A stretch of DNA of 64,000 nucleotides from an uncultured Candidatus Actinomarina sp. (GTDB taxonomy: Bacteria > Actinomycetota > Acidimicrobiia > Actinomarinales > Actinomarinaceae), in NCBI GenBank assembly GCA_902615855.1, contig CACMQN010000006.1, positions 6,208 to 70,207 on the forward strand, read 5' to 3'. Under the pieces are notes generated by a model. It was not told where the DNA came from, did no database searches, and saw only the letters and a list, made by a program, of their open reading frames with translations. Positions 3,710 through 47,802 of the stretch are shown in pieces; the first letter of the stretch is position 1, and each line of letters starts with the position of its first letter. A program made the position numbers and the translations under genes.

Positions 3710-3873
3710 TCTGAACAATCTAATAAAATCTCTTCGGAAATCATAGAGTGGTAAAAACATATTAATTTTTAGAGAAAAAACACACACCAACCAAAAACCC
3801 TACGATTGTTGAGTTTATTAGAGGATATAATAAGAAAAATAATAAGTGAATTTCAGATTATAAAACCTAGTTA

Positions 3874-3909
3874 GTTTTGTTTTCGCGAAGATGGTTTTGT
3901 TTTCGCGAA
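3874..3909. repeat. Direct repeat 2 x GTTTTGTTTTCGCGAA (3874-3889 and 3894-3909), each containing the palindrome TTCGCGAA, in the dnaA-rpmH spacer
   Basis: Read directly. The copies start 20 bp apart. A ~60-bp stretch of almost pure A/T follows (3910-3970). Confidence 0.9.
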
Positions 3910-3980
3910 CTTTTAAATTAAATATTAATTTACTTTGTTTAAATAATTTTTTAATATATTGTGTTTAAACAGGAAGAAAA

Positions 3981-24779: not shown

Positions 24780-27430
24780 TGTTTGGATATACTAAACGAC
24801 CACTTTTATTAATTGCTTGGAAGAATTTAAAAACCTATCCAGTAAGGATATTTTTAACTACATCATCAATTATTCTTGGCGTCTCAGTAATTATTGCTGC
24901 GAATATTTTTTCTGAAAGCAATAAAAATGCCTTTGACAATTTATTCTCTGGGGTATTTGAAGGAATTGATTTAGTTGTCCAGCCTGTTCAAGAAGATTTT
25001 GCTCAAGGATTTGGTGATGACGGAGGGCAAGGTCCAATATCGTTTGAGCTCAAGAAGATTTCAGACAAAAAAATAAATGAAATAAAAAGCATAGATGGAG
25101 TAAAAGACGCATGGGGAGATGTCATAGGGTTTGCTCAATTTATAAAATTTGGACCAAGAAAAGATTGTCACTCTTTTAATCCTGAATGTAATAGGGAAAC
25201 AATACTTATACAAAACGGTTTTGCTCCTACTTTTGGTGCTGCGTGGGATACGTCTCCATACGCTACACAGTGGGAACTTATTGATGGTAATCCACCTACA
25301 AATAAACAAGAAGTTGTAATGGATTCAACAACAGCAGAAGGAAATGGCTTTTTAGTTGGAGACAGAGTTACAGTACTTGCTGGAGCAATACCAGCTTCCT
25401 TTACAATTGTAGGAATAGCAGAATTTGCGAATACGGGTTCTCCTGGAGGAGCCTCTTTTGCACTTTTTGATTTCAATACTGCACAGATTCTTTTGGACTC
25501 AGTTGGAGAAGTAGATTTCATCAATGTTGTAGTTGATGAAAATGCTGATATAAATATAGTTCGTAATGCAATATCTAATATTGACAATCAGGGTTTAGAA
25601 GTAATAAACGCTCAAGAAGCTGCTGCAGAGCAAGCAGATTCTATTAAGCAAGGTCTTGATTTTTTTAATACAATACTCAATGTTTTTGCAGGTATTGCTA
25701 TTTTTGTTGGAGCATTTATTATTCAAAATACATTCAGAATCCTTTTACTTCAAAGAACAAAAGAACTTTCATTATTAAGAGCTTTAGGTACATCAAAAAG
25801 ACAAGTTTATAGACTAGTTGTATCAGAATCGTTATACATGGCCATAATTGGGTCTGGTTTAGGAGTTGCATTAGGTATTGGGCTATCAATTGTTGTTAAA
25901 GAAGGTTTAAAATACTTTGATTTTGGACTACCAGAAGGACCGTTAGTTCTTACTCCAAATGCTGCCATTACTGGAATAATTATTGGTGTTGTGGTAACGA
26001 TACTTTCTTCATTATTGCCTGCAAGAAAAGCTTCGCAAGTTAGTCCATTAGAAGCGATAAGAGATAGCCAATCAACACCAAAAAGAAGATCACTTTTTAT
26101 AAGACTACTTATTGGATCTCTTGTCTCATTAATAGGCTTGACAATTCTTTTTGGAGTACTTTACTCATTCTTTAGAACACCATCTCTAACTGTATTACAA
26201 CAAGTTGGTTTAGGTGCAAGTATTATTTTCATTGGCATATCTGTAATAACACCATCTATAACAAAACCATTTGTTACTATTTTCGATAAACTTTATAAAT
26301 CATTTTTTGGAATTTTAGGAAAACTTGCGACTGAAAATTCAAAAAGAACACCACGTAGAACCGCTTCAACAGCATCAGCGCTAATGATAGGGTTAACACT
26401 AATTTCACTTGCAAATGTTTTAACTACCTCTTTTAAAGCACAAGCTGAGAAAGTTGTAAAAGAGGTAGTACTAGCTGATTATCAGGTTAGTGCTGCTCAA
26501 ATTTTTGCTTCACCTGGGATACCAACTGGACTATCACAAGAATTAATTGAGCTTGATGAAGTTACAGATCTTTCAAGAACAAGAGCAACAGTCGTTGGTT
26601 ACAATAATAGACCATTGATATTGGGAGCTGTTGATAAGGCAGTTTTTGATTTAATAAAAACAGATGATATTGCTGGCTCACGAGAAGATTTTTACAGTAA
26701 AGATGCAATAGGTGTTCTTAAATTCAAAGCAGAGAGTGATGATATTGCACTTAATGATAAAGTAACTTTAACAATCCCCGAGGTAGGAAAAAAAGAATTT
26801 GTTGTTAGATATATTTTTGATTGGACAACTCAACCACCTGCAGAGTTTTTCCTCCTTTTAGATAATCATGAATTTTTTTCAAATGAGTCTTTAGATACCG
26901 AACTTTATTTTAATGTTGTGACCAAAGATGAAGCAACTAAAAATAAGCTAGATGACATTATAGATCATTACCCAGGTGTTACCCTTCGTGATCAAGATGC
27001 TTTAATTGATGAAGCTAATAGTCAAATTCAATTATTGTTAAACGTAATTTATGGATTTTTATCTATATCTATTTTTGTCGCTCTTTTTGGAATTACAAAT
27101 ACTTTATCTTTATCTGTTTATGAGAGAACAAGAGAAATAGGATTGATGAGAGCAATCGGAACTTTAAGAAAACAAATAAGAAACATGGTTTTCATTGAGT
27201 CTTCAATTATTTCAATTTTTGGTGCAATACTTGGAACCGGATTAGGAATCTTTTTTGCATGGAGTTTAATTCAAGCACTGGAAGATCAAGGATTTACAGA
27301 ATTTGTTGTTTCTACGCAACAAACGATTATATGGATTGGTATAGCAATATTTGCTGGGATAATTGCTGCAATAATTCCTGCAATCCGAGCATCAAGACAG
27401 AATATTTTGGAAGCTATTTCTTATGAGTAA
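24779..27430 (+). CDS. ABC transporter permease with two FtsX-type domains and large extracytoplasmic loops (MacB-type)
   Basis: 883 aa with the FtsX signature twice (ELSLLRALGTSKRQV and EIGLMRAIGTLRKQI). ATG overlaps the ATPase stop. Confidence 0.8.
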   Translation: MFGYTKRPLLLIAWKNLKTYPVRIFLTTSSIILGVSVIIAANIFSESNKNAFDNLFSGVFEGIDLVVQPVQEDFAQGFGDDGGQGPISFELKKISDKKINEIKSIDGVKDAWGDVIGFAQFIKFGPRKDCHSFNPECNRETILIQNGFAPTFGAAWDTSPYATQWELIDGNPPTNKQEVVMDSTTAEGNGFLVGDRVTVLAGAIPASFTIVGIAEFANTGSPGGASFALFDFNTAQILLDSVGEVDFINVVVDENADINIVRNAISNIDNQGLEVINAQEAAAEQADSIKQGLDFFNTILNVFAGIAIFVGAFIIQNTFRILLLQRTKELSLLRALGTSKRQVYRLVVSESLYMAIIGSGLGVALGIGLSIVVKEGLKYFDFGLPEGPLVLTPNAAITGIIIGVVVTILSSLLPARKASQVSPLEAIRDSQSTPKRRSLFIRLLIGSLVSLIGLTILFGVLYSFFRTPSLTVLQQVGLGASIIFIGISVITPSITKPFVTIFDKLYKSFFGILGKLATENSKRTPRRTASTASALMIGLTLISLANVLTTSFKAQAEKVVKEVVLADYQVSAAQIFASPGIPTGLSQELIELDEVTDLSRTRATVVGYNNRPLILGAVDKAVFDLIKTDDIAGSREDFYSKDAIGVLKFKAESDDIALNDKVTLTIPEVGKKEFVVRYIFDWTTQPPAEFFLLLDNHEFFSNESLDTELYFNVVTKDEATKNKLDDIIDHYPGVTLRDQDALIDEANSQIQLLLNVIYGFLSISIFVALFGITNTLSLSVYERTREIGLMRAIGTLRKQIRNMVFIESSIISIFGAILGTGLGIFFAWSLIQALEDQGFTEFVVSTQQTIIWIGIAIFAGIIAAIIPAIRASRQNILEAISYE

Positions 27431-27433
27431 AAT

Positions 27434-30400
27434 TTAAGGATTTCCAGGAGGCGGTGCTTCTCCACCAGGAGGAGGTGACTCATTTCCACCAGGAGGAGGT
27501 GACTCATTTCCACCAGGAGGATTATCTTCACCACCAGGAGGCGGTGCTTCTCCACCAGGAGGATTATCTTCACCACCAGGAGGTGGATTATAACCCTCTC
27601 CTTCAGGAGGTGGTCCTTGACCCTCTTGTTCAGGTTGACATCCTGGTGCAGCTGGATTATTTGCACAATCTTCTTCATTTTGTTGTCCACCAGGAGGTGG
27701 TACTTCTCCACCAGGAGGATTATCTTCACCGCCAGGAGGTGGATTATAACCCTCTCCTTCAGGAGGTGGTCCTTGACCTTCTTGTCCACCACTTTGAGGA
27801 CAACCAGGTGCATAAGGGTTGTCATCACAATCTTGGTCTTGTATTATTCCATCTTGAGGAGGCGGAGGAGCAACTTGTGAACATGAAGGATCATCTTGAT
27901 TTTCATCGCAATAGTTTCCTGCAAATTCAGTAAAATTATCTGATTGATTTTTAAATTCATCTGCTTTCTCAGCATCTCCCCAAAAACCACCTGGTGCAGG
28001 TTGTGTCCCAGGGGCAAAACCTCCTTCAGGAGGTGGACCAAAAGCATCACCTTGACCAGGCCCTCCCCCCTCTGTTGGTTGAGCATAACAGAGAGGATCT
28101 TGAGGATTGTCCTGACAAAGTGAACCTAGATCTTCAGGATTGAATGCTTCAAATTCTTGTACACCACCTTCTCCACCGGTCAATAATCCCGATTCTGCTG
28201 GATCAAAACCTACTTGACATCCTGGTTCATTTTGATTTCCAGGAGCAGAGCAATCAAGAACAAAATAATCATCATGATTACCATATCGCTTAGATCCTAA
28301 ATCATTTGCTCCATCAATTGAATTATAAAAAACTCCTTGCTGAGCTAAATCAACATATGAATCATCACTAAACATATTTTCTAAGAACTCACCTTTATCA
28401 AAATTACTTTCTCCGTAATAATCTCTAAAACATTCTGGATGGTTAGGATCTTCTGTACAAAAATTAGGTTTTTCACCTGCTCTAGCATTTGGATTTGGAG
28501 CCGCGTATTGAGCTAACAACCCGCCAGTCAAAGGACCTTTCAACCCTCCTTCTTGTCCAAAATTTGAATCACACTCAGGTGCATCAGGAGTTTGATCACA
28601 ATATCCAGGAGCTATATATTCCCCTCCGGAGAAAACATCAGCTGGTCTGTAATTATCTCCACATTCAGTAGCTTCAGGATTTTCTTGACAGAATTCTGGT
28701 GGTGGACCAGTTAATTGTTGAGGTCCTCCATAAATATCAAACATATCATTTCTATCCAATGCAAGACCTGTTGCATCTCCGACATGTTGATGGAAAAAGT
28801 CTCCTTCACCACTACACATTGAATCATCTGGGTATTGACTACAATCTACAGGTTCCCAATCATCACCTAAAACTTCTTCATCATAAACATGAAAAAACTT
28901 ATAAACAGCTTGAGCATTTCCACCCATACACTCCGGAGAATCAGGACTATCTGCGCAGAAAGAATCTTCTTTAGGACCTCCCCCAAAGAACATTTTTCCA
29001 GCATCGGTGCTACCTTCTGCACATCCCTCAGGATTAGAGTCACAATACGCACCTCCTTCTTCAAAAGCATCTCCTACAAATTGTGGACCATTCGAACACT
29101 CGGGTAACCAAGACTGTTCATCGCAATAACCTGGTTTAATGTCATTTGCTGTAAAACTATATTCAAATCCCATTCCCTGGACCATATCCTCAACAAAATG
29201 ATTACCTGCAAATGCTTGAGCTAGAAACTCTGGAGGTGGAGCTCCAGCTGCACATTCAGGATCAGTAGGATTATTCGCACAATAGGTACCTTCAACAAAA
29301 TTATCTTGACCTGCGTTCACAAACATATTTGCAGCCGCCAGTGCCATAGCGTTAGCAACATTACCTGTATTTGCTAATTCATTAACGGCATTTGTATCTG
29401 CTGAAATAAATTGCATCATTCCATGTTGTGCACGAAAGTTACCGTTTTCATTATGGTCAAAACCAAGATCTTGAAATTTTTCATTTTCGTGAACAGTTAC
29501 AGCATCTTCAAATATTCCAAAAAATTCAGAAACCGGTGGAAGTTCTTGAGCTGGACCATTTTCAGGTGGTTCTTGCCAGTTTGCAGTTATGAACTCCTCA
29601 ACAACCTCATCTGGTACTGCTACTTCTTGTACTACTTCAGAAAGGACTTCAACAGAATTTGTTATTTCTTCTGGTGCTCCTGCTGCTACTAGAAGGGTTT
29701 GAGTTAAATCCAATCTCTCAGCATCGCTTTCAGTAAAAACTGCATTTACAGCAACATCTGCTGTTAATTGTTCACTTCCCACAGCAAGACCTTCCTGAGT
29801 TGTAGCTTTACATGTGTAACTACATGCACCTTCCATATTTGAAACAAATTCATCGACAATCAGGGCAACAGTTGATGACTCCTCATCAACCCAACCTGAA
29901 CCTCCTGTTGTTCCACTTCCAAGTTCTGTTCCTGCAGTTTGAGAGACAGCTACTAAAACTGGATCACCTTTTTCGTTAGGCAATAATTCACTAAATACTG
30001 CATCGTCTGCTTCTTCCCCACCTTCTAAAACTGTACTTTTTGCAGAAAGAGTAGTTACGTCATATTCAAACACACCCTCAGTTCCATGAACAGAGAGTTC
30101 TGCAGTTGGGGTAACAATTTTTGCAAGAGATGCTGATAGCCCTTCACTCTTGATGTCATACGCAATACTTCCAGAGATTACATCTACTGTTAAAACTCTT
30201 GCATTTTCTTCCTCATCATAATCAAAACTTCTTATGTTAATAACGGAGTTGCCACCCATTAATAGTGATGAACCATCTTCAAATGTCATCTGAGCAGTAC
30301 CATTGTCAGCTGTTCTAATCTTTACACCCATATCTAGCGGGACAATCTCACTAATCACTTCCCAGTCACTAGAGGCATCAGTGAGAATACCTGTTGCTCC

Positions 30401-30607
30401 AATAAGAGGTTTTAAGAGAATTGGAGGAACAACTAAATCTGCTTCGTTATAGACTTCTCCAGAGAATATTTCTTCATCCGCAGTTGTGGTTGTTGTAGTC
30501 TCTTCAGTGGTATCTGTATTTTCACTTGATGTGTCATCTGAACCACCACAGGCAGAAAGAATTAGAAAAAGAATAGTTAAAATAACAAAACTTTTTTTAT
30601 GTTTCAT
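27434..30607 (-). CDS. Giant acidic lipoprotein: FecR-like beta-sandwich, 13 short Cys-loop repeats and a Pro/Gly-rich C-terminal tail
   Basis: Lipoprotein signal MKHKKSFVILTILFLILSAC from ATG at 30605-30607 (the ORF is also open to a GTG at 30643). Thr-rich linker. FecR-like segment GVKIRTADNGTAQMTFEDGSSLLMGGNSVINIRSF. Then repeats of type YCANNPTDPEC, FCADSPDSPEC, YCDQTPDAPEC, FCTEDPNHPEC, DCDDNPYAPGC and others. The tail is PPPGGEDNPPGGEAPPPGG... Confidence 0.75.
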   Translation of the reverse strand: MKHKKSFVILTILFLILSACGGSDDTSSENTDTTEETTTTTTADEEIFSGEVYNEADLVVPPILLKPLIGATGILTDASSDWEVISEIVPLDMGVKIRTADNGTAQMTFEDGSSLLMGGNSVINIRSFDYDEEENARVLTVDVISGSIAYDIKSEGLSASLAKIVTPTAELSVHGTEGVFEYDVTTLSAKSTVLEGGEEADDAVFSELLPNEKGDPVLVAVSQTAGTELGSGTTGGSGWVDEESSTVALIVDEFVSNMEGACSYTCKATTQEGLAVGSEQLTADVAVNAVFTESDAERLDLTQTLLVAAGAPEEITNSVEVLSEVVQEVAVPDEVVEEFITANWQEPPENGPAQELPPVSEFFGIFEDAVTVHENEKFQDLGFDHNENGNFRAQHGMMQFISADTNAVNELANTGNVANAMALAAANMFVNAGQDNFVEGTYCANNPTDPECAAGAPPPEFLAQAFAGNHFVEDMVQGMGFEYSFTANDIKPGYCDEQSWLPECSNGPQFVGDAFEEGGAYCDSNPEGCAEGSTDAGKMFFGGGPKEDSFCADSPDSPECMGGNAQAVYKFFHVYDEEVLGDDWEPVDCSQYPDDSMCSGEGDFFHQHVGDATGLALDRNDMFDIYGGPQQLTGPPPEFCQENPEATECGDNYRPADVFSGGEYIAPGYCDQTPDAPECDSNFGQEGGLKGPLTGGLLAQYAAPNPNARAGEKPNFCTEDPNHPECFRDYYGESNFDKGEFLENMFSDDSYVDLAQQGVFYNSIDGANDLGSKRYGNHDDYFVLDCSAPGNQNEPGCQVGFDPAESGLLTGGEGGVQEFEAFNPEDLGSLCQDNPQDPLCYAQPTEGGGPGQGDAFGPPPEGGFAPGTQPAPGGFWGDAEKADEFKNQSDNFTEFAGNYCDENQDDPSCSQVAPPPPQDGIIQDQDCDDNPYAPGCPQSGGQEGQGPPPEGEGYNPPPGGEDNPPGGEVPPPGGQQNEEDCANNPAAPGCQPEQEGQGPPPEGEGYNPPPGGEDNPPGGEAPPPGGEDNPPGGNESPPPGGNESPPPGGEAPPPGNP
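27462..27509. repeat. Perfect tandem duplication 2 x 24 bp (CCACCAGGAGGAGGTGACTCATTT), encoding GNESPPPG twice
   Basis: Read directly, in frame, within the 3' end of the lipoprotein gene. Confidence 0.9.
27547..27784. repeat. 82-bp direct repeat (27547-27628 and 27703-27784, 80/82 identical, period 156 bp), encoding EGQGPPPEGEGYNPPPGGEDNPPGGE
   Basis: Aligned by eye. The two mismatches are at cac-c/g-cc and gacc-c/t-tc. It is part of a 52-aa protein-level repeat that includes one Cys loop. Confidence 0.85.
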
Positions 30608-30716
30608 GTCTATGTTCTTAATCCTAGACAAAATTTCTCTCACGTTCTATATTGATGAATTTAATATTTACCACTCTTTTTAGTAAAAAAATAGATGTCT
30701 TTTACAATAATTACAT

Positions 30717-42535: not shown

Positions 42536-42991
42536 ATGGAAAAAAAACTTTTTAGGAAAAAAAATAAATTCTTTTCAAAACTTTTGAATGGTATTTTTCT
42601 TTCATATGTTTCCGTTGACAACATCTTAGAGGGTCCATTAAGAGAATTTTTAAAACGTTATTTCGATCTTGATGAATTTGGTTCTAACAACAGAGAAGAA
42701 AGTCTTTATTACCTAATTTTATTCTTTGGTCTTTTCCAAATAATCATTTCGCTTCAAGCAATTTTTCAACCAGTGATAGAAATCAAAAATGGAAAAATAG
42801 CTCTTAAGACAAAAGAAAAAATTTTGTCAATAATTAATGGCGTAGATGAAATAACTAATATTCAAGAAAAAGATGAAGATACTATCATTTTTTCATTTCA
42901 AGAAAAATCATATGAAGTAGTGATTAAACATATAGACAGTCGTGAATTAGAGCTTATTTTGACTGAAATAAAATCAGCGATTACCGAGTAA
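42536..42991 (+). CDS. Hypothetical protein with an N-terminal TM hairpin
   Basis: 151-aa ORF with no recognised motif. Confidence 0.5.
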   Translation: MEKKLFRKKNKFFSKLLNGIFLSYVSVDNILEGPLREFLKRYFDLDEFGSNNREESLYYLILFFGLFQIIISLQAIFQPVIEIKNGKIALKTKEKILSIINGVDEITNIQEKDEDTIIFSFQEKSYEVVIKHIDSRELELILTEIKSAITE

Positions 42992-43144
42992 AGTTCGCGA
43001 AAAATATATTAGAAAATATTTTGCGCAAACATGGTTTTTTACCTATATTTATAGAAACTATTGGAAAATAAATCGCAAGATTTAAAAGAAAATAGAATAG
43101 AAAATCCCGAAGGGTCGCAAGATCAATCGGGATTTTTGCTTTAT
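42990..43144 (+). repeat. Intergenic module copy 1 (155 bp), paralogous to 44457-44612
   Basis: Aligned by eye. Shared 5' 14-mer AAAGTTCGCGAAAA, promoter-like hexamers at the same offsets, UCGCAAGA hairpins, and an identical 3' 54 nt (43091-43144). Confidence 0.9.
43056..43142 (+). ncRNA. Candidate small RNA or terminator-type leader, copy 1 (tandem GCAA-capped hairpins)
   Basis: -35 TTGCGC 43021-43026, 17-nt spacer, -10 TATATT 43044-43049. Hairpin AUC-GCAA-GAU at 43072-43081. Long interrupted stem AAAAUCCCGA/UCGGGAUUUU (43101-43136) capped by GGUC-GCAA-GAUC and followed by UUUUUGCUUU. The 5' end is estimated only. Confidence 0.35.
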
Positions 43145-43174
43145 GCCATCGATTTATCTATCTAAAATTAAAGT

Positions 43175-44443
43175 ATGAAAGCACCAGTAGTTGGAAGCCC
43201 TCCTGTGGTGGGTCACTCTATACAATTTAATTATGATGCACTTGCATTGATCCAAAGACTTCAGGAATCAAAGGGTGATGTGTTTCAGCTTAATATTTTA
43301 AATGAAGACGTACTGTTATTCTTAACTCCCTCAGCTACGAAACAAATTTTTTTGGATCCTGATGATAATTTTTCTTCAAAACATGGTTGGGAATTCTCTA
43401 TAGGACCAACATTTGAAAATGGTCTAATGCTTCGTGATTTTGATGATCATAAATATCATAGATCACTTTTGCAGAATTCATTTCGTAGAGATGCATTAGA
43501 TAAATATATACACATCATTCAACCAAGAATTGATTCATGGATTGAAGAAGTAAAACAAAAAAGAGAGTTTTATTTATATAAGTCAATAAAACAACTTATG
43601 TTTAACGTTGCTGTTGAATTATTTTTTGATGAAGTTGACGATACAAAATTAAATCACTTAAATCAACTTTTTATAAATTCAATAAAACCTGCAACAACAA
43701 TTGTACGTAGCCCTTATCCAATGACAAGAATGAAAAAAGGATTAAAAGCTAGGGTCGAGTTATTAGAGTATTTTCAAGAAAAATCTGACAAGATTGATCT
43801 TTCAAAAGAAACATTGTTTGCAGACTTAGTAAAAACAAATAATGAAGAAGCTGGGTTAACAAATTTCGAAATAGCTGAGCATATGATTTTTTTACTACTT
43901 GCTGCACATGACACAACAACAAGCACCCTGACTTCATCTATTCACTTTTTAGCTGGAGATGAAAAATATCAAAACAAAGTAAAAACTGAATCTTCTACAC
44001 TGTCAAAAACAGATATATCTGATCTCAAAAATGGAATCATAGGTGAGGCTTTATTTAATGAAGCAATAAGAAAATATCCCCCTGTCCCTTTTTCTCCTCG
44101 GTGGGTAGTTCGAGATGCAGAATTGGACGGTTATGAAATACCTAAGAATACATATATTGCTGCTGGACCTTTAGTTTTACACAACGATGAAAGATATTGG
44201 GAAGATCCTTTAGCTTTCAATCCAGAAAGATTTGAAGATCCAACAATTACACATGAGGCATATTTTCCATTTGCTGGAGGAGCTCATACTTGTCTTGGAA
44301 AATTTTTTGCAAGTTATTTATTTAAAAACGTTATCTACAAACTTGTGGATAATTTTCAGGTAATTAGTACAAATGAAGAACTTAAAATCAACCCTGCACC
44401 AATACCAAACCCTAGAAAAGATGTGAAAATTCAAGTTTCATAG
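43175..44443 (+). CDS. Cytochrome P450
   Basis: Heme-thiolate loop FPFAGGAHTCLGKFFA, I-helix LLLAAHDTTTS, EAIR (ExxR). Confidence 0.9.
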   Translation: MKAPVVGSPPVVGHSIQFNYDALALIQRLQESKGDVFQLNILNEDVLLFLTPSATKQIFLDPDDNFSSKHGWEFSIGPTFENGLMLRDFDDHKYHRSLLQNSFRRDALDKYIHIIQPRIDSWIEEVKQKREFYLYKSIKQLMFNVAVELFFDEVDDTKLNHLNQLFINSIKPATTIVRSPYPMTRMKKGLKARVELLEYFQEKSDKIDLSKETLFADLVKTNNEEAGLTNFEIAEHMIFLLLAAHDTTTSTLTSSIHFLAGDEKYQNKVKTESSTLSKTDISDLKNGIIGEALFNEAIRKYPPVPFSPRWVVRDAELDGYEIPKNTYIAAGPLVLHNDERYWEDPLAFNPERFEDPTITHEAYFPFAGGAHTCLGKFFASYLFKNVIYKLVDNFQVISTNEELKINPAPIPNPRKDVKIQVS

Positions 44444-44456
44444 GGTTTTATCTTAA

Positions 44457-44612
44457 AAAGTTCGCGAAAAAAAAGATCTTAAATTTTTTGCCAAAACATA
44501 GATAAGTATGTAAATTAAATACACACTATTAAAAAAGAAGTCGCAAGACCGAAATTTTAATAGAATAGAAAATCCCGAAGGGTCGCAAGATCAATCGGGA
44601 TTTTTGCTTTAT
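44457..44612 (+). repeat. Intergenic module copy 2 (156 bp)
   Basis: See copy 1. The 3' 54 nt (44559-44612) are identical to 43091-43144. Confidence 0.9.
44523..44610 (+). ncRNA. Candidate small RNA or terminator-type leader, copy 2
   Basis: -35 TTGCCA 44488-44493, 17-nt spacer, -10 TAAATT 44511-44516. Hairpin GUC-GCAA-GAC at 44540-44549. Same terminator hairpin at 44569-44604 plus U-tract. Confidence 0.35.
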
Positions 44613-44777
44613 AGACGATTTTTTATATAAAAAAGCAAAAAGACTCCCTTGTGGCTGTTATTTTTGTTTTATCACACTTTTAGCAGTGGCTCAAAGCACG
44701 AAAGGAAGTCCTATATATAAGTTTAATAATCTTTTGATTTTGTTTTAAAATTTAGAAAAAATTCATATAATTAAAAC

Positions 44778-46028
44778 ATGAAAAAGTCAATAAATATAGG
44801 GATTATCCTACTTTTTTTACTTCAAGCATGTTCTGGCGAAGAAAATACTAAATCTCCTATAAACCCACCTCAAGTATTAGAAAATTCAGTTGAAAATGAA
44901 ATTATCGAAAACGACGTCCAAGAAGAAGAGCAATCAAAACCGGAATCAAATACTGAAATAGCTGATATTAAAGAAGTCCTTAAAGAATTCCCGCAAGGAG
45001 CGCTTTCGTTTTTAGGAGATAATGAAAAGCAATGTATATCACAAATTTCAACAACAGAAGCTCTTAAGAGCATGGAAAAAAGCTTAATGGAGGAAGGGTC
45101 AATTCTTCAGGAGCATATGGATTATTTCACATCATGTAATCTTCCTGGTCCACCTGGAATAGGAATAAAAGAAGCAACTTCTTCTAATGATAATGAAATT
45201 GTCCAAGAGACCTATTATGCCACTTCATTTGCAAGCGTTGAAAACATTAGATCTTTGGACGAAGATGGCGTAAGTCCTCATTTAGAAAAAGTTGATGAAA
45301 AGACTCTCAGATTATTTTACAGCAGCATTGAGGTAAAAGGGATAGCAGTATCATTATGTGATTATAAGTTTAAGTGTGAACTACAAGGAGCTCTTGAGAG
45401 GATGTCAGACCTAACAATAATCGAGACACTTGATGGGGTAAGAAGAGGCTACTATGTTGCATTAAATCCTCAAACTCAACAGAAAGATATTTTTACTGCT
45501 GTTTTTTCAGAAGATGGATTGAGTTACAGTAATGAAACACCGCTTGGGTTTCCTGTAGATCAGAATGAGATTGCCTGGGGAGTGCCAGATGCTGTACTAA
45601 TGCCAAATGGCTTAGTAAGAGTTTATTGGGTGTATACAGAAGACAAGACCTCTGATGAAAAACTTGTAAGTGCAACATCTAAAACCACTAAGGGTGTTGA
45701 GTTTATCATGGATCCTGGGTACAGGTTAGAAAATGGCTATGTAGATTTTGAAGTAATAATAGCTGCTGAAGGAGACTGGAAAGCTCTAATGTCGTATACT
45801 CCTCATTATATGCCCGAAATACCTCAGAGCTTATTTTATGCAACATCTAAAGATGGATTAAAATGGGATTTAATCGAGGAAAGAATTACTCCTAAAGGGT
45901 ATTCTTACTTTGACCCTACAGCAATCCCAATTGATGACAAAAACTATTTAGTCGTAGGGTCAGCTGCTCCTAACACTTTGGGAGATAGAGAGCATATATT
46001 GTTTACTGCTGAGTTAGTACTGCCATGA
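44778..46028 (+). CDS. Secreted lipoprotein with Asp-box-like motifs, paralogue 1 (possible beta-propeller; function unknown)
   Basis: Lipobox LLQACSG. The C-terminal ~270 aa are paralogous to the next gene (WGVPDAVLMPNGLVRVYWVYTED, SATSKTTKGVEF, DPGYR, GYVDFEV, LFYATSKDGLKWD resembling the SxDxGxxW Asp box). Confidence 0.65.
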   Translation: MKKSINIGIILLFLLQACSGEENTKSPINPPQVLENSVENEIIENDVQEEEQSKPESNTEIADIKEVLKEFPQGALSFLGDNEKQCISQISTTEALKSMEKSLMEEGSILQEHMDYFTSCNLPGPPGIGIKEATSSNDNEIVQETYYATSFASVENIRSLDEDGVSPHLEKVDEKTLRLFYSSIEVKGIAVSLCDYKFKCELQGALERMSDLTIIETLDGVRRGYYVALNPQTQQKDIFTAVFSEDGLSYSNETPLGFPVDQNEIAWGVPDAVLMPNGLVRVYWVYTEDKTSDEKLVSATSKTTKGVEFIMDPGYRLENGYVDFEVIIAAEGDWKALMSYTPHYMPEIPQSLFYATSKDGLKWDLIEERITPKGYSYFDPTAIPIDDKNYLVVGSAAPNTLGDREHILFTAELVLP

Positions 46029-46990
46029 GAGAAAAAAAGTTTGTTTTGTTTTTTTTAATATTAGTTTTTGGTATGTGTGGCAGTGACTCCTCTATTGAAG
46101 TAAATGAACTTGTAGAAGAAGATAAAGAAACTGCCCAAACTGACACGGATAATAAATCTGATTTAGTAAGTAAGGACAGTCAAGGCATAGCGATTGAAAA
46201 TATAAAATCTATAGATCATTACGGTACAAGTTCACATATGGAAATAGTAGATGACTCTACTTTAAGACTTTTTTACAATGATTTTGGTGGTGTTGTGGTT
46301 TTTCTTTGTAGTTATGATTTTGATTGTGAAAAACAGGGAAATATCCAATTTATTACAGACCTTACTTTGATTGAAACTCTTGACGGTGAAAGAAGAGGTT
46401 ATTTTGTCGAAATGAATCCAAATACAATGGAAAGTGGGATTTATACTGCAAAATTTTCTGAAGATGGGCTCACCTATACTGAGAAAACACCTCTAGGCAT
46501 TACAGCTAGAGAGGATGAAGTTGCTTGGGGTGTTCCTGACACAGTAGTTATGCCAAATGGTTTGATAAGAGTTTATTGGGTGTATACAGAGGATAATTTC
46601 TCACCTGAGAAAATTGTGAGTGCAACGTCAAAAACAACAAAAGGGATTGAGTTTACACTTGATCCAGGATACAGAATTGATGATGGATACGTAGACTTTG
46701 AAGTTTTAAAAGCGGAAGAAGGAGACTGGAGAGCTGTAATGTCATACACACCGCACTACCTTCCCAACATACCCCAGAGTTTATTTTACGCAATATCAAG
46801 AGATGGTTTAGATTGGGAATTTAGTAAAGAGAGAATAACTGAAAAAGATTTTAGTTATTTAGATCCAACAGGAGTACCACTTGACAACGGGACATATTTA
46901 CTGGTTATGAGTGGAGCAACTAATGAAATGGCTGATCCAATGAAAAATCCTAATTATCAATTATTTACAGCACAATTAATTCTTCCATAG
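46025..46990 (+). CDS. Secreted lipoprotein with Asp-box-like motifs, paralogue 2
   Basis: Lipobox VFGMCGS, ATGA overlap with paralogue 1, and the same conserved blocks (WGVPDTVVMPNGLIRVYWVYTED, LFYAISRDGLDWE). Confidence 0.65.
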   Translation: MREKKFVLFFLILVFGMCGSDSSIEVNELVEEDKETAQTDTDNKSDLVSKDSQGIAIENIKSIDHYGTSSHMEIVDDSTLRLFYNDFGGVVVFLCSYDFDCEKQGNIQFITDLTLIETLDGERRGYFVEMNPNTMESGIYTAKFSEDGLTYTEKTPLGITAREDEVAWGVPDTVVMPNGLIRVYWVYTEDNFSPEKIVSATSKTTKGIEFTLDPGYRIDDGYVDFEVLKAEEGDWRAVMSYTPHYLPNIPQSLFYAISRDGLDWEFSKERITEKDFSYLDPTGVPLDNGTYLLVMSGATNEMADPMKNPNYQLFTAQLILP

Positions 46991-47034
46991 AATATATCAA
47001 ACTAAATAATCATTTTTTCATTTATAATTAACCC

Positions 47035-47802
47035 ATGAATATTGGTGCACATATACCCTCAAAAAACGCTATAGAGGAAATAAAATCAAGAAAGGGAGAT
47101 ACTTTTCAAATATTTATTTCTAGTCCCCAAATGTGGAAAAGCCCAAAACCCCGTGAAGATGTTGATGTTTTACAAGAGTATGATGGCCCAATTTATGTTC
47201 ATGCACCATATTTAATTAATGTTGCTACTCCAAATAATAAAGTTCGCCATCCAAGCAGAAAACTATTAAAAGACACGTGTAAAGTTGCTGCAAGTTTTGG
47301 TGCCAAAGGAGTAATTGTTCATGGAGGATCTGTTGGTGAAGGTGGAGACATTAGTGTTGGTTACGACAACTGGAGAAAAGCTTTAGAGCATGTGGAGGAT
47401 ACAGGCATGAGAGTGTTGGTTGAAAATACTGCAGGTGGCAAAAATTCAGTCGCAAGATATATGGACTCAATTGAGAGGTTATGGGAGGTAATCGGTCATT
47501 TAAACGTAGGACTATGTTTAGATACTTGCCATACCTGGGCTGGAGGAATACCTACCATTGATGCAGTTAAGGGATTCAAGAAATTAGTCAAAAAAATAGA
47601 TTTAATACACTTTAATGATTCTAAAGATGGTTTTGAGAGTAGTAGAGATAGACATGAAAACTTAGGAAAAGGAAAAATTCCAAAAGAGGAATTAGAGTAT
47701 GTAATCAAAAATGCAAAAACAGATATTATTGTGGAAACACCTAATGGACCAGATGCACAAAAAAAAGATATTGCTTGGATAAAGAGGCGTTTAAATAAAT
47801 GA
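47035..47802 (+). CDS. nfo: Endonuclease IV (AP endonuclease family 2)
   Basis: HAPYLINVATPN, VHGGS, ENTAG, CLDTCHTWAGG, HFNDSK and DRHENLGKGKI metal-site motifs. Confidence 0.85.
   Translation: MNIGAHIPSKNAIEEIKSRKGDTFQIFISSPQMWKSPKPREDVDVLQEYDGPIYVHAPYLINVATPNNKVRHPSRKLLKDTCKVAASFGAKGVIVHGGSVGEGGDISVGYDNWRKALEHVEDTGMRVLVENTAGGKNSVARYMDSIERLWEVIGHLNVGLCLDTCHTWAGGIPTIDAVKGFKKLVKKIDLIHFNDSKDGFESSRDRHENLGKGKIPKEELEYVIKNAKTDIIVETPNGPDAQKKDIAWIKRRLNK

Follow-up and report, generated by a model that had tools for sequence, protein, structure and literature searches.

The locus considered here lies in a 64,000-nucleotide (nt) stretch of DNA (the window; G+C ~32%) from an uncultured Candidatus Actinomarina sp. 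(assembly GCA_902615855.1, contig CACMQN010000006.1), where a cytochrome P450 gene stands between two non-coding modules, the first behind a gene for a 151-amino acid protein and the second in front of a pair of lipoprotein genes (Table 1). Each module carries, in order, a TCGCGAAAAA box, a pair of -35/-10-like hexamers, a first hairpin, and a second hairpin that runs into a U-tract. A preliminary description of the sequence had picked out the two modules as paralogous and identically oriented, and they do align over ~155 nt, with the final 54-56 nt identical (43089-43144 = 44557-44612); the hexamers are likewise as described there. Our comparisons place both in a multicopy family, with several members per genome and with gene contexts that extend beyond the P450. 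The host group, the Candidatus Actinomarinales, comprises abundant uncultured bacteria of the surface ocean whose gene regulation is almost entirely undescribed.

The same two-hairpin structure is obtained for both modules, as the minimum free energy (MFE) fold and as the centroid fold, at -26.6 and -28.5 kcal/mol for modules 1 and 2 (z = -5.2 and -6.35 relative to shuffled sequences). Hairpin 2 with its U-tract UUUUUGCUUU has the makeup of an intrinsic terminator, namely a stable G+C-containing hairpin followed by a run of U, and would be predicted to act as one; within the family, conservation is highest in this terminator-like element. A 40-mer spanning it occurs exactly twice in the 64 kb, where none is expected (100 shuffles), and TCGCAAGA occurs five times in the window against 0.94 expected, with four of the five inside the modules. 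The 14-mer AAAGTTCGCGAAAA, found at 42990 and 44457, recurs once more, without mismatch, on the minus strand at 3900-3913. A small open reading frame (ORF) within the module was considered and rejected, as the short ATG frame of module 1 is missing in copies of the type found at locus L002 and the part predicted to be transcribed contains no ATG or GTG.

Table 1. Positions in the window of the two modules, their parts, and the P450 segment between and beyond them
Feature	Position	Strand	Description
Module 1	42990..43144	+	Whole unit, from upstream box to end of U-tract; begins at the stop codon of the 151-amino acid ORF; 110.6 bits with covariance model R1
TCGCGAAAAA box, module 1	42995..43004	+	Putative operator or UP-like element; -35-like hexamer 26 nt downstream
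Promoter-like element, module 1	43021..43049	+	TTGCGC (43021-43026), 17 nt, TATATT (43044-43049)
Hairpin 1, module 1	43058..43095	+	Outer stem CUAUU/AAUAG, A-rich internal loops, inner stem, GCAA tetraloop at 43075-43078
Hairpin 2 and U-tract, module 1	43100..43143	+	11-bp lower stem, 2x2 AG/AA internal loop, 4-bp GGUC/GAUC stem, GCAA loop at 43117-43120, then UUUUUGCUUU
Cytochrome P450 gene, alpha allele	43175..44443	+	Between the modules; own TAAAAT at 43163-43168, 6 nt before the ATG, leaderless-type
Module 2	44457..44612	+	Whole unit; P450 stop codon 14 nt upstream; 110.6 bits with covariance model R1
TCGCGAAAAA box, module 2	44462..44471	+	
Promoter-like element, module 2	44488..44516	+	TTGCCA (44488-44493), 17 nt, TAAATT (44511-44516)
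Hairpin 1, module 2	44526..44563	+	Inner stem GUC/GAC, GCAA loop at 44543-44546
Hairpin 2 and U-tract, module 2	44568..44611	+	Same sequence as in module 1
Replaced, highly divergent segment relative to close relative L002	43145..47100	.	Left edge is the end of module 1, right edge approximate; holds the P450 gene, module 2, element X and the lipoprotein pair

Species-representative genomes were queried with the 151-amino acid protein encoded upstream of module 1, which returned seven loci, all from Candidatus Actinomarina, OCS155 or related single-cell and metagenome-assembled genomes, in keeping with the low-GC marine actinobacterial source guessed at in the preliminary description. When these orthologous loci were compared, as that description had proposed, the P450 gene was found flanked by both modules in all seven GTDB Actinomarina-group species loci, as it is on more distant contigs, and the 3' 54 nt of the modules were invariant across the seven save for one base. 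More distant homologues of the 151-amino acid protein (68%, 63%, 59% and 43% identity) led to contigs that also carry modules. On the most distant of these (L014), the order is a 150-amino acid gene (+), a module, a GNAT gene (-), a second module and the P450 gene (+); here the lower stem of hairpin 2 has changed from CCCGA/UCGGG to CCCGG/CUGGG, and the helix of hairpin 1 is retained by a register shift to CACUA/UAGUG. A scan of metagenome contigs with the pattern GGGTCGNAAGATC-N8-TTTTTGC matched at least 120 contigs, from which 11 matches were excluded: nine that had no module lower stem, a deleted copy (L041) and a copy truncated by the contig end (L044). The scan added at least ~140 instances, and together the metagenome matches listed and the earlier loci amount to at least ~164 instances, of which 109 are distinct full modules. 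Because the search pattern itself fixes the upper stem and U-tract in the metagenome set (L017-L136), the unbiased set for judging invariance is the window with L001-L016.

The surroundings of these instances are diverse. Among the matches listed, the downstream neighbour is a P450 gene in at least 50 instances, an NHL-type lipoprotein gene in at least 40 and a 5'-3' exonuclease gene in at least 19, with a zinc-type alcohol/threonine dehydrogenase and a TIR-domain protein among the others. Upstream stand genes for the 151-amino acid protein, a 176-amino acid membrane protein, MetX-, MetY- and MetK-like enzymes, a DNA-alkylation-repair protein, or a P450, and single copies also adjoin housekeeping genes. 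A covariance model (R1), built on 50 distinct predicted transcripts, found only modules 1 and 2 in the window, followed by the reverse strands of their own hairpins; on other loci it detected further variant copies, a third paralogue type ending in GGGAUUUUCACUUU, and tandem pairs of modules in which each copy retains its own promoter-like element. Related contigs carry two or three copies each, in at least four distinct gene contexts in addition to the tandem pairs. The search of relatives advocated in the preliminary description was thus productive, and the P450-specific bracket it had envisaged gives way to several other contexts and tandem arrays. Seven contigs (L018, L019, L044, L049, L060, L088 and L089) stop within a few bases of the terminator hairpin, as would be expected if an identical 54 nt recurs several times per genome and breaks assemblies. 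As far as sampled, the family is confined to the Candidatus Actinomarinales, whose genomes measure ~1.1 Mb, encode two sigma factors and are 97% coding, the median gap between genes being 2-3 bp (PMC7771536). The retention of 150-nt non-coding units in genomes this compact implies that they have a function.

Conservation of an RNA structure is evident from the alignment of the 50 sequences, from which RNAalifold independently recovered the two hairpins. Pairing is possible in 84.4% of cells, compared with at most 44% when the partners are slid by 1-3 columns; changes on both sides of a pair number 45 cells against 16.7 +/- 4.0 in shuffled alignments, and the covariation score is 0.113 against 0.063, with none of 500 shuffles reaching either value. 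Five pairs covary. Three of these are in hairpin 1, the helix for which the preliminary description had looked to covariation as a check: 16:47 (UA 44, AU 4), 17:46 (CG 34, UA 5, AU 1) and 27:36 (AU 28, GC 22), the last being the family-wide form of the compensatory A-U to G-C exchange it had noticed between the two copies. The remaining two are 65:82 (AU 35, GC 12, GU 3) and 62:85 (CG 49, UA 1), and the pairing of hairpin 2 is complete in all 50 sequences. Variation in the loops stays within the GNRA class (GCAA, GAAA, GUAA), in the tip context UCG(C/A)AAGA, and the two identical tips keep a constant spacing of 42 nt. The strand is also apparent, as the pair 69:78, G-U in all sequences, and the pair 64:83, G-U in 12, would be A-C mismatches on the opposite strand, which indicates a plus-strand RNA; a further G-U pair at 55:92 likewise suits the plus strand alone, and the reverse strand scores at most 25.8 bits with R1 against 110.6 bits for the forward strand.

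The strength of this constraint can be gauged against the adjacent coding sequence. In genomes whose P450 proteins are 60-89% identical, third codon positions of the P450 gene are 45-60% identical and second codon positions 82-96%, whereas the linker and hairpin 2 (53 nt) retain 91-100% identity and hairpin 1 68-90%. The terminator is thus constrained in its sequence, beyond what its shape alone would demand. Sequence constraint of this kind is unusual in the terminators of small RNAs, and in riboswitches the terminator is the variable part.

Upstream of the RNA body, the modules share a promoter-like footprint of fixed geometry. The TCGCGAAAAA box is present in 108 of the 109 distinct modules, and the distance from its start to that of the TTGNNN (-35) hexamer is 26 nt in 107 of these 108; the 27 nt given in the preliminary description is a count from the first T of TTCGCGAA. 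All 108 have exactly 17 nt between the two hexamers, in a spacer of variable sequence. The -10 hexamer is TATATT in 58 distinct modules, TAAATT in 42 and TACATT in five, and lies 9 nt from the CUA of hairpin 1 in 97, 8 nt in nine and 7 nt in two. In keeping with this, the information profile of the 109 modules is high at the TCGCGAAAAA box, TTGC, TAnATT and the RNA body, and low between the hexamers. Fixed geometry around a spacer of free sequence is what would be expected of a promoter preceded by an operator or UP-like element, and we infer that the hexamers form a working promoter, one per copy. Taken with the five covarying pairs and the conservation of the 3' domain, the near-universal footprint supports the earlier suggestion that selection has acted on a small-RNA-like unit, rather than the pair having arisen by a recent duplication.

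The box of the modules also recurs at some distance from the locus. The spacer between rpmH and dnaA (3791-3980) contains two TCGCGAAAA boxes on the minus strand, at 3879-3888 and 3899-3908, 20 nt apart, one of which is the exact AAAGTTCGCGAAAA 14-mer mentioned above, and a TATAAT on the dnaA strand lies 19 nt downstream of the pair. The hexamer TCGCGA occurs only five times in the 64 kb, four of them in this spacer or in the modules. The shared box suggests a DNA-binding factor that may be common to the dnaA promoter and the putative small-RNA promoters.

The contexts of individual copies bear most directly on what the modules are. In L014-type genomes, the copy that precedes a convergent GNAT gene and the copy that follows a divergent gene both keep the box, the hexamers and the two hairpins. 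The former cannot be a leader, given its convergent downstream gene, and the latter cannot be a 3' untranslated region (UTR), given its divergent upstream gene. Only an autonomous unit running from promoter to terminator fits the convergent, divergent and tandem contexts together, and on these grounds we favor, with confidence a little better than even, the interpretation that each module is an autonomous small-RNA gene of a multicopy ('sibling') family. Families of this sort have several paralogous copies per genome, as is the case here (two in the window and two or three on related contigs), each with a promoter of its own, which for the modules takes the form of the comparative footprint of a putative promoter.

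An alternative that was also raised in the preliminary description is that the modules are cis-acting leaders or attenuators. In such a scheme the module promoter would drive the downstream gene and hairpin 2 would be a conditional terminator, relieved when a protein or ligand binds the UCGCAAGA hairpins, with a regulon made up of the P450, the lipoprotein, the 5'-3' exonuclease and others. The succession of promoter, structured RNA, terminator and gene is the classical attenuator layout, the same downstream gene is kept while the upstream neighbour differs, and the interval from U-tract to start codon is nearly constant at 32-38 nt. Nevertheless, in at least 22 instances the module precedes a convergent GNAT gene at a gap of 0-39 nt, as does the first module of L014, and the downstream genes have no functional relation to one another. 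Those that are co-directional also lack a Shine-Dalgarno sequence and have a TAnnnT or TATAAT hexamer of their own, placed 6 nt ahead of the start codon (TAAAAT-6-ATG for the exonuclease and, in the window, for the P450; TATAAT-6-ATG or GTG for the lipoprotein), so that RNA reading through from the module would be poorly translated. The modules moreover lack a conserved antiterminator pairing: the MFE and centroid folds coincide, and the sole candidate, the proposed ability of either half of AAUAGAAUAG to pair with CUAUU, does not hold up as a family feature, since the second AAUAG is replaced by AACAG, AAUAA or UGUAG in relatives. Finally, the terminator is the most conserved part and hairpin 1 the least, the inverse of what riboswitches display. 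A riboswitch was rejected on the combination of convergent contexts, independent downstream promoters, absent antiterminator and inverted conservation, and we consider a leader or attenuator role in general to be improbable.

The leaderless arrangement of the downstream genes is a broader feature of this DNA. In the form of TAAAAT or TATAAT 6 nt ahead of the start codon, and with Shine-Dalgarno sequences absent, it occurs in 21 of the 38 window genes that have an upstream gap of at least 40 nt, and examples at the first genes of operons include 43163-43177, 44766-44780 and 47023-47037. This implies that leaderless mRNAs are probably widespread in the window.

The modules might instead be repeated terminators or insulators, each constituting the structured 3' end of an upstream mRNA and a bidirectional terminator, with no separate RNA and with the upstream part serving as a DNA site for a nucleoid or replication protein. 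In most contexts the module does start no more than ~5 nt from the stop codon of a co-directional upstream gene, and the A-run and U-run flanking hairpin 2 would permit termination on both strands, with convergent GNAT genes ending exactly there (0 nt gap). The presence of the TCGCGAAAA box, twice, in the dnaA promoter region would also suit a replication-protein site. Set against this, a plain terminator would require neither 54 invariant nt nor a TTGNNN-17-TAnATT element at a set distance, nor the conservation of a second hairpin; copies behind a divergent gene are intact even though there is no upstream mRNA to terminate, and tandem copies would be redundant. We regard this explanation as unlikely. 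DapZ and MicL, small RNAs that arise from 3' UTRs under their own promoters, are comparable to the modules, which likewise sit at or just past an upstream stop codon and would have the upstream mRNA's terminator in common with it. The modules differ in occurring also where no co-directional upstream gene exists, and in having their promoter after, not inside, the upstream coding sequence.

The modules also mark the edges of gene replacement. By their flanking proteins (329 and 151 amino acids), the window groups with L001-L007, with L009 and L010 farther and L014 farthest. The P450, by contrast, exists as two alleles with ~64% amino acid identity between them, alpha in the window, L001, L005, L007 and L009 and beta in L002-L004, L006, L010 and L014, a distribution at odds with the relationships of the flanking genes. 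Types that are 48% identical likewise exist for the lipoprotein downstream of module 2, in differing combinations with the P450 alleles. Identity between the window and L002 is ~0.9 through module 1, falls to 0.46-0.6 from 43151 and recovers near 47100-47500; between L009 and L010 it is ~0.9 to the end of module 1, 0.6-0.7 over the P450 and 0.91-0.97 from ~200-300 nt beyond module 2. The modules are therefore the junctions of the replaced P450 segment. None of the at least ~164 instances holds both P450 alleles in tandem.

These observations give some weight to the possibility that the modules are mobile or recombinogenic repeats acting at the level of DNA, of the repetitive extragenic palindromic (REP)/REPIN, miniature inverted-repeat transposable element (MITE) or integron-attC type, which move or exchange cassettes such as the P450 gene. 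In its support, direct repeats surround a gene with two deep alleles that are exchanged against the flanking phylogeny, identity breaks at the modules, and many metagenome contigs break off at the hairpin, as they would at a multicopy repeat. Like REP and REPIN sequences, the modules present a near-identical imperfect palindrome at gene ends that could be a terminator and that breaks assemblies. The modules are, however, low in copy number and occupy the same, orthologous sites in all seven species loci and, across genera, on distant contigs whose flanking protein is only 43% identical, where MITEs and REP/REPIN elements vary in presence. Their structure is asymmetric and of RNA type, the G-U pairs and covariation pointing to RNA and not to a DNA hairpin, and they include a promoter-like element and a second hairpin. 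The split into paralogue types A, B and C is itself ancient, terminal inverted repeats and target duplications are not visible in the sequence, and single copies lie by housekeeping genes as noted above. The neighbours (phosphatase, acyltransferases, lipoproteins, a TIM-barrel protein and a decarboxylase) include no integrase or transposase, and the 20 kb of flanks covered contain no integrase; a RAYT gene was not seen either, though no genome-wide search for one or for a transposase was made. A DNA-level repeat is, on balance, improbable. The extreme conservation of the modules would make them good substrates for homologous recombination, so that we view P450 replacement as a consequence of the modules and not their primary function. 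The cassette and recombination alternative in the preliminary description thus has partial support, in that two deep P450 alleles replace each other between the modules.

If each module is a small-RNA gene, its operation can be outlined as follows. Transcription would start ~7 nt past the TAnATT -10 hexamer, with TTGNNN as the -35 hexamer and the TCGCGAAAAA box centred ~60 nt upstream of the predicted start, and would end at the U-tract to give an RNA of ~88-90 nt. This discrete RNA would accumulate and would have a binding partner. The best candidate for its functional surface combines the purine-rich linker with the near-invariant 3' hairpin and the purine internal loop within it. The identical UCG(C/A)AAGA tips at 42 nt and the near-invariant AG/AA-containing hairpin 2 are suggestive of recognition by a protein rather than of seed pairing; the partner would most plausibly be a protein, possibly a dimer touching the two identical loops, with a trans target RNA as the alternative. 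The 3' hairpin may additionally terminate the upstream gene and insulate the leaderless promoter of the next one.

Some features of the family sit poorly with a small-RNA gene of the usual kind. Typical base-pairing small RNAs conserve the seed while the terminator drifts, and GNRA loops make poor pairing seeds; here the conserved parts are mostly paired or within GNRA loops, and the terminator hairpin is the invariant part, the inverse of the typical case. In addition, certain downstream genes (those for the P450, the NHL-type lipoprotein and the 5'-3' exonuclease) remain linked to the modules at the nearly uniform 32-38 nt distance noted above, which could mean a role in cis. A more ambitious proposal is that the modules encode a new class of protein-binding regulatory RNA, which titrates a dimeric factor through its identically looped hairpins and whose transcription is coupled, by way of the TCGCGAAAA operator shared with dnaA, to replication or the state of growth. 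The RNA would then be a core global regulator in a bacterium that ranks among the free-living species with the fewest genes, while its genes, being ultra-conserved, would double as landing pads for the exchange of cassettes of the P450 type between Actinomarina lineages. We offer this as speculation that is rather unlikely to be right in full.

The family appears to be undescribed. A scan of the whole window against Rfam 15 at gathering scores gave no matches, in agreement with the failure of the preliminary description to recognise an RNA family, and a permissive scan of 42900-44800 (E up to 10) gave only noise, the best being a minus-strand rimP hit of 28.1 bits (gathering score 47) that covers just the terminator. 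A tRNA/tmRNA scan of the window was negative, as was a search of viral contigs for the exact 26-mer of the hairpin. Resemblance of hairpin 2 and of a neighbouring conserved element (element X, below) to group II intron domain 5 or to signal recognition particle-like motifs was entertained and dismissed, with no Rfam support and with the defining motifs absent. The tip of hairpin 1 in module 2 may be similar to a GCAA hairpin of E. coli 16S rRNA, a likeness to which we attach no weight. The papers searched on Actinomarina, the Actinomarinales and marine small RNAs yielded no description of the module family, and in the Actinomarinales genome paper non-coding RNA appears only as a figure track (PMC7771536). 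By analogy, the modules are best read as a multicopy small-RNA family with a common promoter box.

Several well-studied systems are comparable in part. The CiaR-dependent small RNAs (csRNAs) of streptococci and Qrr1-5 of Vibrio are, like the modules, paralogous genes of ~90 nt, some in tandem, with their own promoters behind a box at fixed distance and an intrinsic terminator. They have conserved single-stranded seeds and variable terminators, whereas the modules have an invariant terminator hairpin and closed GNRA loops, and the two show no sequence or Rfam similarity. Yfr2 of marine picocyanobacteria, an abundant RNA, offers another parallel, being a multicopy ~90-nt RNA of streamlined marine hosts with 5' and 3' hairpins and individual promoters; the conserved unpaired GGAAACA between its hairpins is absent from the modules, which belong to another phylum and have no Rfam match. 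Within the Actinobacteria, 6C RNA (RF01066) shares the arrangement of two hairpins with the same loop motif followed by a terminator. Its loops are C-rich, single-stranded and suited to pairing, unlike the GCAA, GAAA or GUAA loops of the modules, which gave no match to RF01066 at the gathering score or at E up to 10.

A 150-nt unit present in several copies per genome, part of which exceeds the second codon positions of its neighbour in conservation, is likely to be a central regulatory component of its host. The analysis provides an RNA consensus and covariance model that can be applied to marine metatranscriptomes, a candidate operator common to the modules and dnaA, and an example, from a streamlined genome, in which conserved, putative RNA genes form the junctions of gene replacement.

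A third conserved non-coding element, element X, lies just past module 2 (~44628-44713) and is also present at L010 9331-9420 and L014 8717-8810; in relatives it stands upstream of an AP_endonuc_2/decarboxylase operon. Its consensus fold is better on the minus strand (-11.8 kcal/mol by alifold) than on the plus strand (-5.4 kcal/mol). On the minus strand, a closing helix GGACUUCCU/AGGGAGUCU with U-G pairs is followed by UUUUUGCUUUUUU, and a conserved TAAAAT-like hexamer lies 8-9 nt upstream. We found no covariation in element X and no Rfam match in a scan of 44600-44790. It may be a small RNA of ~85 nt, convergent with the module. A structured leader on the plus strand was rejected for its weak consensus fold, the absence of covariation and the better minus strand, and pairing between the module and element X was discounted, the only match being 7 bp inside a paired region and judged to be due to chance.

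Among the other genes of the window, the lipoprotein genes downstream of module 2 (44778-46028 and 46025-46990) are 72% identical over 300 nt (45489-45788 and 46439-46738), which identifies them as paralogues; neither has a Pfam match, and no exact match to the P450 protein of the window is on record. Farther upstream, 27420-27790 is a CCAGGAGG-rich coding tandem repeat with a period of 21-24 nt, within the minus-strand ORF 27434-30643, and would encode a proline/glycine-rich stretch.

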